Below the pieces are notes generated by a model. It was given only the letters and a program-made list of their open reading frames with translations. It was not told the DNA's origin and did no database searches. This document shows, in pieces, positions 11,477-29,707 of a DNA stretch of 64,000 bases (position 1 is its first letter; each line of letters starts with the position of its first letter). This DNA comes from Gammaproteobacteria bacterium (lineage in GTDB: Bacteria > Pseudomonadota > Gammaproteobacteria > CAJXQU01). Made by a program: the position numbers and the translations under genes. The DNA is taken from contig CBDEGZ010000003.1 in NCBI GenBank assembly GCA_965238175.1, positions 2,528,001-2,592,000 on the forward strand. The letters run 5' to 3'.

Positions 11477-12880
11477 ATGGCTGACAAATCAATTAACTGC
11501 CCTGAGTGTGGAACAGAGATCGAAATCTCGACAGTGCTTTCTCAGCAGATCGAAAATGATCTGAAAAAAGAAAATGATCAAAAAACCCTAAAAGCGGTTG
11601 AAGATGCAAAGAAAAAATCATTAGAAGATTTCTCTATAGAAAGGAAAAGATTTGAACTGCAATTCGAAGAACAAAATAGCAAACTCGCAAAAGCTTCCGA
11701 AAGAGAATTGCAGATAAAAAAACAACAGCATGATCTAGAAACACAGAAACAACAATTTGAGCAAGAACTTGAATCCCGTTTAAAGCAAAGAGAACATACC
11801 TTACGCGAGAAAATCAAACAGAAGGCTAAACAAGATTTAGCAATGGAATTCAATGATCTACAAGAACAACTTAAAGAAAAGGACTTACGTGTTGAAGAGG
11901 CACAGGTAAAAGAAATAGAGATCCGTAAACAGGCTCGTCAACTAGAAGAAAAACAAAAAAATATTGAGCTTGAGTTTCAACGTAAAATTGATCAAGAACG
12001 AAAAGAGATAGAAGACAAAATCAGTAAACAGTTTTCAGATGAATCAAATCTGAAATTGAGAGAAAAACAAAAACAGATAGATGATCTACGAAGATCTCTA
12101 GAAAATGCAAAACGCAAAAGCGAACAAGGTTCAATGGAAACACAAGGTGAAGTGTTAGAGCTTGATCTTGAGCATCGACTAAATAATGAATTTTCTCACG
12201 ACACTATTTCACCCGTTCCAAAAGGGATCAAAGGTGCTGACATTATCCAAAATGTCAGAGACACAGCCATAAACGAATGTGGCAAAATTATCTGGGAAGC
12301 TAAAAATACCAAAAACTGGTCACCGCTTTGGCTACCAAAACTCAAGGATGATCAAAGAGAAATCGGCGCTAGTATTGCAATCCTAGTTACAGTTGCATTA
12401 CCAGAGTCTATATCAAGTTTTGGAATGATCGATGGTGTTTGGGTAACTGATGTCAAATCTGCCTTACCACTGGCCTCTGCGTTACGTGAACAACTTATTC
12501 AAATCAATTTCGCTCGTAACGCTTCTCAAGGCAAAGGGGAAAAGATGGAAGATATGTTCAACTATCTTTCCGGAGATGAATTCAAACAACGTGTCGAAGC
12601 CATTGTTGAAACTTTTAGTAATATGCAAGATCAGTTAAACCGAGAAAAACGTGCAATGGAAAAGATTTGGAAAGAAAGAGAAAAACAAATCCAGCGAATC
12701 ACGACAAATACAATTGGAATGTACGCAGATGTTCGTGGAATTATTGGATCATCTATTCAAACAATTCCCGCACTAGAACTAGACAACCTCGAAATAAACC
12801 AACAAAAACAAGCCTATACGGAACTAGTTCACACTACTCAAACAGAAACAACGACACAAAACGAGAAACCTAAACAGTAA
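11477..12880 (+). CDS. DUF2130-type coiled-coil protein
   Basis: N-terminal CPECG, long coiled coil, QGSMETQGEVLE, KGADI, WEAKNTK.WS..WLPKLKDDQR. Confidence 0.8.
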   Translation: MADKSINCPECGTEIEISTVLSQQIENDLKKENDQKTLKAVEDAKKKSLEDFSIERKRFELQFEEQNSKLAKASERELQIKKQQHDLETQKQQFEQELESRLKQREHTLREKIKQKAKQDLAMEFNDLQEQLKEKDLRVEEAQVKEIEIRKQARQLEEKQKNIELEFQRKIDQERKEIEDKISKQFSDESNLKLREKQKQIDDLRRSLENAKRKSEQGSMETQGEVLELDLEHRLNNEFSHDTISPVPKGIKGADIIQNVRDTAINECGKIIWEAKNTKNWSPLWLPKLKDDQREIGASIAILVTVALPESISSFGMIDGVWVTDVKSALPLASALREQLIQINFARNASQGKGEKMEDMFNYLSGDEFKQRVEAIVETFSNMQDQLNREKRAMEKIWKEREKQIQRITTNTIGMYADVRGIIGSSIQTIPALELDNLEINQQKQAYTELVHTTQTETTTQNEKPKQ

Positions 12881-12882
12881 AC

Positions 12883-12900
12883 GTGACATCTTTCTGTCAC
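12883..12900. promoter_or_regulatory. 18-bp palindrome, candidate activator box
   Basis: GTGACA-TCTTTC-TGTCAC about 80-100 bp upstream of the GGA-rich RNA candidate. Confidence 0.35.
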
Positions 12901-12981
12901 TAACCTTTTGTTATACCAACCAATATAAAAATAGTGGCAGATAGAACTAAAGAAATTTAGCTTACCAACCGATATACATTT

Positions 12982-13100
12982 TAGCAGTGATTGCACACGG
13001 ACATGCGCACCTGCTACTTTGCGGACACGGATTGTCCGCAATTTAACCCGGCCAAGGAAGGCCACCCTACTTCCCGGACTCCTAATCCGGGAGTTTTGGT
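12982..13100 (+). ncRNA. candidate CsrA/RsmA-sequestering sRNA (RsmY/RsmZ-like)
   Basis: GC-rich island of consecutive hairpins with ANGGA in or at the loops (12997, 13027, 13054), ending in a TTCCCGGA/TCCGGGAG stem plus TTTT. Confidence 0.6.
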
Positions 13101-13241
13101 GGCTTGTCAAGTCAATTTTCTGACGACCAATTCACAGAATAATAGCATCATTCAATCTCTAAAACACCAGCTCCCCCTCTAAAACATTATAAATATCGTG
13201 TCTTCATTCTATATTCCTGTTTTTACGGGAAATAAAATTTC

Positions 13242-13257
13242 TGGCACAGCATATGCA
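13242..13257 (+). promoter_or_regulatory. sigma54 (RpoN) -24/-12 promoter
   Basis: TGGCACAGCATATGCA with GG (13243) and GC (13255) exactly 12 bp apart. Confidence 0.7.
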
Positions 13258-13267
13258 TTATTTGAAA

Positions 13268-13346
13268 CGTAACATGTCATCCCTGACTGTTACGCTCCTC
13301 CCTTTGGGCTTATATTGGCACCTTTATTAAAGGTGCCATTTTTTTT
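13268..13346 (+). ncRNA. candidate sigma54-dependent trans-acting sRNA (~79 nt)
   Basis: 5' hairpin CGTAACA/TGTTACG begins at the predicted +1; CTCCTCCC anti-SD tract; terminator TGGCACCTTT/AAAGGTGCCA plus T8. Confidence 0.65.
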
Positions 13347-13417
13347 GCCTGCCGTTTAACATTCAAATAGAATCCCCTTCCTAACAATTAGATTCAATTC
13401 ATTATCACGAGGCGAAA

Positions 13418-13912
13418 ATGTCTACAATAAGATTTTTGATCACAGGTGGAACCATTGATAAGGTTTACAATGAAATAAATGGAAGCCTGATCTTCGATCA
13501 AACTCATATGCATTCAATGCTAGAACAAGCAAGGTGTAACGTTGGTATATCTACAGAGACAATCATGCTAAAAGATAGTCTTGAAATGGACAATACGGAT
13601 CGAGAGTTAATCAATAAAAAATGTCAGTCGTCTGAAGAATCGTTGATCATTATCTCTCATGGAACAGATACGATGGTCGAAACCGCAGCAGTTCTTGCAG
13701 AACATGTATCCAACAAAACTATTATCCTGTTTGGAGCGATGATCCCATTTACAATCAATTATTCAGATAGCCTGTTCAATCTCGGTTGTGCGATCACAGC
13801 CGTTCAATGCCTCGAAAACGGGGTTTACATTTCTATGAATGGCAAAGTCTTCCCGTGGAATAATGTGATGAAAAACAAGGTGAAAGGTATATTTCAAACA
13901 AAGAAAGTTTAA
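13418..13912 (+). CDS. asparaginase N-terminal-domain protein
   Basis: ITGGTIDK, KDSLEM and SHGTDTM asparaginase motifs in a short 164-aa form. Confidence 0.85.
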   Translation: MSTIRFLITGGTIDKVYNEINGSLIFDQTHMHSMLEQARCNVGISTETIMLKDSLEMDNTDRELINKKCQSSEESLIIISHGTDTMVETAAVLAEHVSNKTIILFGAMIPFTINYSDSLFNLGCAITAVQCLENGVYISMNGKVFPWNNVMKNKVKGIFQTKKV

Positions 13913-29306: not shown

Positions 29307-29335
29307 TTGACTCCCAACATAGACTAGCTTAAAGT
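29307..29335 (+). promoter_or_regulatory. sigma70 promoter of the B12 operon
   Basis: TTGACT-N17-TAAAGT immediately upstream of the riboswitch. Confidence 0.55.
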
Positions 29336-29342
29336 TTCAATC

Positions 29343-29520
29343 GCTCGCGGCACCCAGATAATGGGTTAAATGGGAAGTCGGTCAAATTCCGACGCTGCCC
29401 CCGCAACGGTAGGTGAGTAAAACTGGATCTAAATGTCACTGTGTTAGCTATAAAACATGGGAAGGCGATTCAGTTAGATAATTAAATATCTCCTCACAAG
29501 CCCGGAGACCAACCATGAGC
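29343..29520 (+). ncRNA. cobalamin riboswitch
   Basis: AAATGGGAAGTCGGTCAAATTCCGACGCTGCCCCCGCAACGGTA, CACTG...GGGAAGG, AGCCCGGAGACC B12-box; upstream of a TonB-dependent receptor. Confidence 0.92.
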
Positions 29521-29707
29521 ATTACAAAAAAGTCGCGGTGGGCGATGATTAGTGATGCTATATTTGTTCTTTAAATTTACTTTCTTTAAGAAAGCCTTAA
29601 TAAGAATCAAATCGATCCTCTAGCTAATCTAACCATCCTCCCCACCGCTTAATAAAATCAAAACAATACTGTTCAAATTCGGGTTGGAATTTGAGTGGGA
29701 GGAATCA

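Follow-up and report, generated by a model that had tools for sequence, protein, structure and literature searches.

A probable unannotated small RNA gene with a sigma-54-type promoter and a predicted anti-Shine-Dalgarno tract in a gammaproteobacterial genome

In a 64,000-nucleotide stretch of a gammaproteobacterial genome (G000:C3:2528001-2592000, hereafter the window; the whole genome measures 3.35 Mb at 40% G+C), comparative analysis pointed to what is very probably a real and unannotated small regulatory RNA (sRNA) gene of ~79 bases, located behind a sigma-54 promoter. A stand-alone RNA gene of this size had been proposed in an earlier note on the window, and the proposal is borne out by a conserved unit with covarying helices, an invariant exposed tract and a terminator. 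With regard to function, we consider it moderately probable that the gene specifies a stand-alone, trans-acting anti-Shine-Dalgarno sRNA dependent on sigma-54 and integration host factor (IHF), which would make it the first described member of its own family within an already known type of RNA.

The -24 element TGGCAC (13242-13247), the spacer AGCAT and the sequence ATGCA (13253-13257) place the GG and GC dinucleotides of the promoter 12 apart, matching the sigma-54 consensus, and this GG/GC spacing is likewise conserved in the orthologs; the correctly spaced -24/-12 box of the earlier note was thus confirmed, both here and across 17 homologs (Table 1). According to the promoter geometry, transcription would begin near 13268, with ten bases separating the box from the 5' hairpin CGUAACA-U-GUCA/UCCC/UGAC-UGUUACG, the UCCC loop of which is C-rich in the window's genus. 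The hairpin is followed by the tract, with its core CUCCUCCC at 13295-13302 and then UUUGGG, by seven A/U-rich bases between CUCCUCCCUUUGGG and the terminator stem, and by the stem itself (UGGCACCUUU/AAAGGUGCCA, 13316-13338) with a run of eight U residues (U8, 13339-13346). Hairpin, C-rich tract and 10-bp terminator had all been pointed out before, and each is present in the sequence. The minimum free energy (MFE) of the 80-nt RNA was -28.3 kcal/mol, compared with -11.2 ± 2.4 kcal/mol in 200 shuffles (z = -7.1), and the C-rich tract was largely open in the centroid structure. The claim that no open reading frame (ORF) fits the locus needed qualification: an 18-codon ATG frame does begin at 13274, but relatives have ACG, AAG or other letters in place of the ATG, and the frame is not conserved. 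A promoter scan found no sigma-70-like promoter upstream of the sRNA; the sole sigma-70-like site that it returned (13345-13373) lies 3' of the sRNA and 5' of the next ORF.

Table 1. Predicted features of the sRNA locus, in window coordinates
Feature	Position	Strand	Basis or remark
Sigma-54 (-24/-12) promoter, TGGCACAGCATATGCA	13242..13257	+	Box TGGCA[CT]-N5-[ACT]TGC kept at constant distance in 17 homologs
Predicted sRNA transcript, ~79 nt	13268..13346	+	Single copy in own genome; 7/7 genomes of order
5' hairpin, 7 + 4 bp, bulged U	13268..13294	+	Fold and covariation
Single-stranded anti-Shine-Dalgarno-like tract, CUCCUCCCUUUGGG	13295..13308	+	Invariant family core; unpaired in centroid fold
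Intrinsic terminator: 10-bp stem, 3-nt loop, U8	13316..13346	+	Terminator scan and covariation
IHF-like site position, degenerate here (TATATTCCTGTTT)	13210..13222	+	Pattern at fixed place in relatives
Candidate enhancer box GTCAATTTTCTGAC, GTCA-N6-TGAC	13111..13124	+	Starts 131 nt upstream of -24 box

Conservation of the structure was assessed in an alignment of 15 homologs (14 distinct) which was fitted to the covariance model and hence leans towards it: 96.2% of cells were paired, and 15 of the 22 pairs had changed on both sides. None of 500 column shuffles reached any of the five measures employed, and slid partners paired in just 35-43% of cases. Changes on both sides were seen in 7 of the 11 pairs of helices 1 and 2 (92-98% of cells paired) and in all eight pairs of helix 4, the terminator (100% of cells paired). 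An independent MAFFT/RNAalifold analysis of six close relatives predicted both hairpins, with three compensatory pairs out of 22. Because of the effect size and the slid controls, we regard the conservation of structure as safe despite the model-fitted alignment. The tract behaved differently from the helices: in a MAFFT alignment of the 15 homologs, covering four families, the CUCCUCCC, UU and GG columns were invariant (CUCCUCCCUU(U/G)GG) while the helices varied. A putative CCC/GGG mini-helix displayed no covariation in the fitted alignment, and the tract was therefore read as single-stranded and conserved. Its sequence is similar to the 3' end of the 16S rRNA of its own genome (...CACCUCCUUUCU).

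The earlier note had tied its proposal to conservation in relatives, and promoter, seed and terminator were indeed found there by BLAST and by covariance models. A BLAST search with positions 13180-13420 recovered the region from five of the six congeners; 54 genomes belonging to other families gave no match. The class was sampled more widely, in 401 genomes by pattern and in 151 by model, using a covariance model built from the sRNA (R1) and a broader one (R3); a further model with a MAFFT-based structure (R2) had lost the terminator helix, was not searched with and was superseded by R3. R1 found one copy in the own genome, and the sRNA with its promoter in all seven genomes of the window's order, of which this is the sole genus. 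The helix sequences differ in the most distant congener (G005), with the TGGCAC-N5-ATGC box and the tract unchanged. Outside the order, R1 recovered G021 and five of the nine genomes of G021's order (four of six among the good-quality ones), and all five copies have TGGCA[CT]-N5-[AC]TGCA at equal distance, ACUCCUCCCUUGGG and a terminator.

The pattern TGGCAY-N6-TGC-N30-55-CTCCTCCC occurred at 15 places in 12 of the 401 class genomes, as against six for the reversed control. Four further places showed the tract and then a terminator (G313 of family f129, G217 and G372 of f204, and G153 of f148), whereas the places L073, L077, L078, L084, L085 and L087 (in G327, G126, G185 and G347) were without a terminator and were discarded as chance, matching the six reversed-control matches. 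R3 added one more genome (G064, family f59), bringing the sigma-54-type homologs to 17, spread over six GTDB families of the class, the window's own and five others. The copy in G153 (L080, G153:C7:270531 onward), missed by R1, is an extended sigma-54-driven variant in which two CUCCUCC tracts precede the terminator. A locus in G049 (L026; TGGTAC-N5-CTGCT, 25.8 bits) is a possible homolog and stands outside the 17 counted. An exact 19-mer scan returned six loci, four of which were relatives already known from the other searches; the matches in Muribaculum and Fusobacterium metagenome-assembled genomes (MAGs), without promoter or terminator, were attributed to chance. A second pattern match in the own genome (C3:1393320) was likewise rejected, as it is part of a long perfect inverted repeat and is no homolog of the sRNA. 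The repeat region (C3:1393260-1393380, minus strand; near-perfect, ~35 nt per arm) has CTCCTCCC/GGGAGGAG and is located downstream of a TGGCAT-N5-CTGCC box.

The machinery for such a promoter is encoded in the own genome, namely rpoN (233 bits; also present in all five of the other genomes tested) and ten enhancer-binding proteins (EBPs) with strong PF00158 domains, along with Hfq (99 bits). The EBPs include NtrC and RtcR, each scoring higher than the NCBIfam cut-offs, a FleQ-domain protein, PilR, GlrR-like, NtrX-like and PEP-CTERM-regulator-like proteins, and two others. High-scoring -24/-12 boxes precede glnA, fliL, fliK, flgA, a flgJ-like gene, fleS, an exosortase gene and pilA, and because such promoters sit before glnA, fliL, fliK, flgA, fleS and pilA, this promoter type can be taken to be in use in the genome. 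Elsewhere on the same contig (C3:1598588, plus strand), a box TGGCACGACATATGCA that is near-identical to that of the sRNA is found 30 nt before a gene for a 398-aa alpha/beta-hydrolase; other A-TGC variants of the -12 element precede the exosortase (EpsH) gene and two ORFs of no assigned role.

Comparison with Rfam 15 (a gathering-level scan of the window and a scan of 12850-13450 at E up to 10) yielded no family for the sRNA at gathering threshold, in agreement with the earlier view that it is unannotated. The best match was RF00519 suhB/MmgR (alpha-r8), with 23.9 bits and an E value of 0.012, under the gathering threshold of 41 and aligned over tract and terminator. What the window's RNA has in common with suhB/MmgR is the layout: both are short sRNAs in which an unpaired UCCUCCCU tract directly precedes a Rho-independent terminator. 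The 5' part of the window's RNA remained unaligned, its promoter is of sigma-54 type and its relatives are labelled Gammaproteobacteria MAGs, whereas suhB/MmgR is alphaproteobacterial.

Sigma-54-dependent sRNAs of other bacteria include Qrr (activated by LuxO), GlmY (GlrR and IHF), NrsZ (NtrC) and CrcZ (CbrB); GlmY combines a distal EBP site with IHF, an arrangement also suggested for the window's sRNA. CJnc230 of Campylobacter is described as an RpoN-dependent flagellar sRNA in the available text of PMC11187230. All five have a -24/-12 promoter that needs an EBP, as is predicted for the window's sRNA, but differ from it in seed and presumed action, and neither Qrr, GlmY nor the other named sigma-54 sRNA families of Rfam were found in the gathering scan of the window or in the permissive scan of 12850-13450.

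The toxic small RNA (tsRNA) of Betaproteobacteria (RF02278, gathering threshold 50), which is reported to inhibit growth, also has a C-rich CCUCC tract, then UUUGG, then a terminator, although no match to it was obtained in 12850-13450 at E up to 10. TsRNA-like copies (CUCCUCCAUCCUCCUUUGGUGG plus terminator; L016, L021, L033, L159 and L161-L166) occur in many families of the class and were matched by the sRNA-derived model; L021 and L033 scored 36-37 bits against RF02278, under its gathering threshold. These copies have two CCUCC motifs (CUCCUCCAUCCUCC) and conserved sigma-70-type promoters (TTGACA ... TAnAAT), in contrast to the single CUCCUCCC tract of the window's RNA; among the sigma-54-type homologs, two motifs are found in the G153 variant only. 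In 2015 it was still not known what tsRNA does in Burkholderia, according to PMC4603805. A further comparison concerns the cuckoo RNAs, or alpha-r14 (NfeR1, RSs0680), which share a CCUCCUCCC-type anti-Shine-Dalgarno motif and a presumed block of the ribosome-binding site; in the available portion of PMC4615179 this motif is placed in the loops of two to four adjacent hairpins, whereas the window's RNA has a single copy, placed in the linker that joins the hairpin to the terminator. The promoters of cuckoo/alpha-r14 RNAs are given as sigma-70 type in the accessible part of PMC10746234, as opposed to the sigma-54 type seen here. In the literature covered, which did not extend to subscription journals, no description of a sigma-54-driven CUCCUCCC sRNA in Gammaproteobacteria was found. 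The sRNA belongs to none of the curated families, being anti-Shine-Dalgarno-like in its predicted action and sigma-54-like in its predicted regulation.

Within the genus, the gene order is a DUF2130 gene, a conserved ~115-nt element, the sRNA, a 164-aa ORF with an asparaginase N-domain, a convergent mazG and an HNH gene. The co-directional asparaginase-domain gene, located just 71 nt downstream in five of six congener loci (all except G005), would fit an RNA acting in cis as its leader or attenuator, with read-through from the sigma-54 promoter. Such a role is, however, highly unlikely: a strong terminator (10 bp, U8) intervenes, the gene has its own sigma-70-like promoter (13345-13373), and in G005 and in families f16, f129 and f204 the RNA is followed by convergent mazG without a co-directional gene. 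In G005, which is without the asparaginase-like ORF, the sRNA is directly followed by convergent mazG and HNH, and the same two genes stand beside the sRNA in f1, f16, f129 (G313) and f204 (G217), two of the four further pattern places adjoining them. The sRNA is thus a stand-alone gene, anciently linked to mazG, rather than a leader of the asparaginase-like gene, because no co-directional gene follows it in G005 and f16.

As for the neighbours themselves, the ORF at 13418-13912 (plus strand) has the N-terminal asparaginase domain only (82 bits to PF00710, far under the cut-offs of the full-length NCBIfam asparaginases). The ~115-nt element (12983-13097, plus strand), located between the DUF2130 gene and the sRNA in six of seven genus genomes and not seen in G004, comprises three hairpins: CAGCAGUGAUUGCACACGGACAUGCAGCUGCU, which hardly varies, then GGCCAAGGAUGGCC, and lastly a terminator-like one (13071-13093) with UUUU; the middle hairpin differs in sequence by species. 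It had no match in Rfam (best GadY, 18 bits), and could be a second unannotated sRNA or an element of a 3' untranslated region. The sole Rfam match at gathering level in the window was a cobalamin riboswitch (29331-29531, plus strand; 103 bits).

Candidate sites for an activator were seen upstream of the promoter. An IHF-like pattern, YAW-N4-TTKWTW, lies at a fixed place relative to the -24 box (-30 to -33) in homologs of four families, 11 of the 16 having it, and the window itself gave no match; L081 and L082 match the IHF consensus YAANNNNTTGATW perfectly. Further upstream (100-130 nt), the GTCA-N6-TGAC box shows no mismatch in G000, G002 and G003 and one in G004; its right half (TTCTGACG / CTTGACG) recurs at the f16 and f204 loci, and outside these four genus members only the TGACG half-site is kept. 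With at most one mismatch, the box was found upstream of 4 of the 19 sigma-54 promoters examined, those of fliL, fleS, the flgJ-like gene and the sRNA. Contig C3 of the own genome contains 41 GTCA-N6-TGAC sites (e.g. at 157830, 232869, 1471995, 2251505, 2414237 and 3259568), of which ~20 were intergenic by reading, preceding a cNMP-GGDEF gene, an OmpA-family gene, an LVIVD-repeat gene, the gene for a 1079-aa cadherin-like adhesin, a STAS protein gene and fleS; judging by these genes, the set looks like a FleQ-type regulon.

This suggests FleQ, the flagellar and biofilm EBP that senses cyclic di-GMP (c-di-GMP), as activator, in which case the sRNA would belong to a motility or surface regulon and not to nitrogen control, an assignment compatible with an anti-Shine-Dalgarno sRNA. 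The box at 13111-13124 has the GTCA-N6-TGAC architecture of the Pseudomonas FleQ consensus sequences GTCaNTAAAtTGAC and GTCAaAAAAtTGAC, as given in the available text of PMC6120874, and a FleQ-domain EBP (L034) is encoded inside a fleQ-fleS-fleR cluster of the own genome. Within f16, FleQ-type ORFs of ~490 aa are found in the sRNA-bearing G021, G159 and G161 and in neither of the sRNA-lacking G157 and G158. On the other hand, G372, which carries the sRNA together with its sigma-54 box, lacks a FleQ ortholog (the best match reaches 41% over the AAA+ core, and the genome is 94% complete), G153 has no FleQ-domain match, and flagellin is absent from G021 and G372, so the sRNA is not tied to flagella. 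The loss of all but the right half-site outside the four genus members also speaks against FleQ, and the same available text of PMC6120874 calls the consensus unreliable genome-wide. As it is missing from one sRNA-bearing genome, FleQ is a tentative and, on balance, unlikely choice, NtrC is a less probable one, and the remaining probability is spread over the other EBPs.

Five EBP orthogroups (GlrR-like, NtrC, PilR, PEP-CTERM-RR-like and NtrX-like) are common to the sRNA-bearing G000, G021 and G372, but the sRNA-lacking G157 has every one of them as well; six of the eight EBP loci of G158 were included in the orthology comparison. A k-mer census of the sRNA upstream regions yielded GC-rich words only. 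Box spacings of GlrR or PilR type were not found upstream of the sRNA, and TGTC-N10-GACA, the GlrR-type box, was not marked there. PilR was tried as activator and rejected, as the sRNA upstream region has only the 8-mer TTCTGACG in common, which could be due to chance. The pilS-pilR-pilA cluster itself (L037, G000:C3:3322543-3326043) has a sigma-54 promoter before pilA, and its TGAC-N7-GTCA boxes (CTGACAATTnnnGTCAC) are kept in three families (L037 and L202, L220, L215).

A nitrogen response had been proposed in the earlier note on account of the asparaginase-domain neighbour. This argument is not supported: the gene is absent in G005 and in other families, it has a sigma-70-like promoter of its own, and no NtrC-type GCAC-N7-GTGC box was seen upstream of the sRNA by eye, without a pattern search, while the glnA promoter has two. 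Activation by NtrC, with the sRNA as a nitrogen-stress regulator feeding back on glnA, glnK and amtB, can be argued on other grounds. A crude target scan picked out 44 start regions that could pair with the tract over a 7-mer, three of them being glnA, glnK and amtB with a GGAGGAG Shine-Dalgarno sequence. Of 20 regions sent to Pfam, many were internal false starts (COX1, DnaE, AcrB, enolase); glnA, glnK and amtB were genuine. The CCGGAGGAG of glnA is kept in five of six congeners and the GGAGGAG of amtB in five of seven. NtrC orthologs were present in all sRNA-bearing genomes tested, and the alphaproteobacterial MmgR reportedly responds to NtrC. A link to NtrBC is described in the accessible part of PMC10746234 for NfeR1, which also has the CCUCCUCCC motif. 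However, NtrC is equally present in sRNA-lacking genomes, and the asparaginase-like neighbour is not conserved. The glnA comparison fails to discriminate because GGAGGAG also precedes glnA in the sRNA-lacking G157, hence the complementarity to glnA, glnK and amtB is at present a lead and not evidence, and control by NtrC seems doubtful.

Invariance of the tract over 13-14 nt in four families exceeds what a minimal anti-Shine-Dalgarno sequence would need, and this, together with its resemblance to the 16S end and the lack of a specific mRNA target in our scans, could also be explained by mimicry, whereby the CUCCUCCCUUUGG tract would imitate the 16S 3' tail and titrate a protein or RNA that recognises this tail, with no pairing to mRNA. 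Against such titration, the neighbouring mazG and HNH genes indicate no partner, GGA repeats of the CsrA/RsmA type are absent from the sRNA sequence, and known RNAs with this motif are described as anti-Shine-Dalgarno pairing RNAs in the available portion of PMC4615179. We consider mimicry decidedly improbable.

Several observations weigh against a sigma-54-dependent anti-Shine-Dalgarno sRNA acting in trans. The promoter pattern by itself is weak evidence, as TGGCACN5WTGC is not rare (one match in the window against 0.14 expected, and at least one match in 14 of 100 shuffles), and the -12 element is ATGC (A/C-TGC across orthologs), not the consensus TTGC, although this variant is conserved and present at other candidate promoters. 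The 5' end at 13268 was derived from promoter geometry; the C-rich loop of hairpin 1 varies outside the genus in the MAFFT alignment of 15 homologs, and the MFE fold shows a weak CUCC/GGGC pairing. On the side of targets, complementarity to strong Shine-Dalgarno sequences is non-discriminating, as seen with glnA in G157, and neither the 7-mer scan of start regions nor the 13-nt complement scan of the own genome brought out a specific mRNA. The only perfect 13-nt complement (C3:1644533) precedes just a 3-codon frame and does not lie at a real start; the stop-broken frames around it (C3:1644050-1644900, L227 1050-1900) are presumably those of a degraded IS4-like transposase. The promoter nonetheless stands above chance because its box is conserved, at 58-63 nt from the end of CTCCTCCC, in 17 homologs from six families.

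On the reading of a trans-acting anti-Shine-Dalgarno sRNA, sigma-54 RNA polymerase would bind the -24/-12 box, and an EBP bound ~100-150 bp upstream, probably aided by IHF-type bending at about -50, would open the promoter. Transcription would begin near 13268 and end at the U8 terminator, releasing an RNA that is predicted to consist of the 5' hairpin, the unstructured invariant CUCCUCCCUUUGG tract and the terminator hairpin with its U tail. A terminator hairpin with a U tail is the usual 3' module of Hfq-type sRNAs, and both features expected of this type, a Rho-independent terminator with U8 and an hfq gene in the genome, are present. The tract, as a mimic of the 16S rRNA 3' end, would be expected to base-pair with mRNAs that have strong Shine-Dalgarno sequences (GGAGG, GGGAGGAG) and may thereby block ribosome loading; translational repression in trans is what we infer from these features.

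A bolder version, which we regard as speculative and improbable as a whole, would see an ancient family that links an EBP signal to ribosome binding, with a sigma-54/IHF-driven mimic of the 16S tail damping strong Shine-Dalgarno mRNAs (glnA, glnK and amtB among them), as a promoter-swap sister of the sigma-70 tsRNA-like RNAs, and with FleQ input, hence c-di-GMP and surface sensing, in the window's genus.

The sRNA gene is very probably real; it is well conserved and otherwise an ordinary kind of element. With it, lineages for which metagenome bins are nearly the only source gain a well-supported sRNA family that had escaped annotation, and its covariance model could serve as the starting point of an Rfam entry and so help annotation. 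Its promoter can be assigned to a type with unusual clarity, and since sigma-54 promoters are silent without their activator, the signal that the RNA reports must be a single, specific one. With the same invariant tract found behind two promoter classes within one GTDB class, the family also gives comparative access to the CCUCC-motif 'toxic' RNAs, which are poorly understood.

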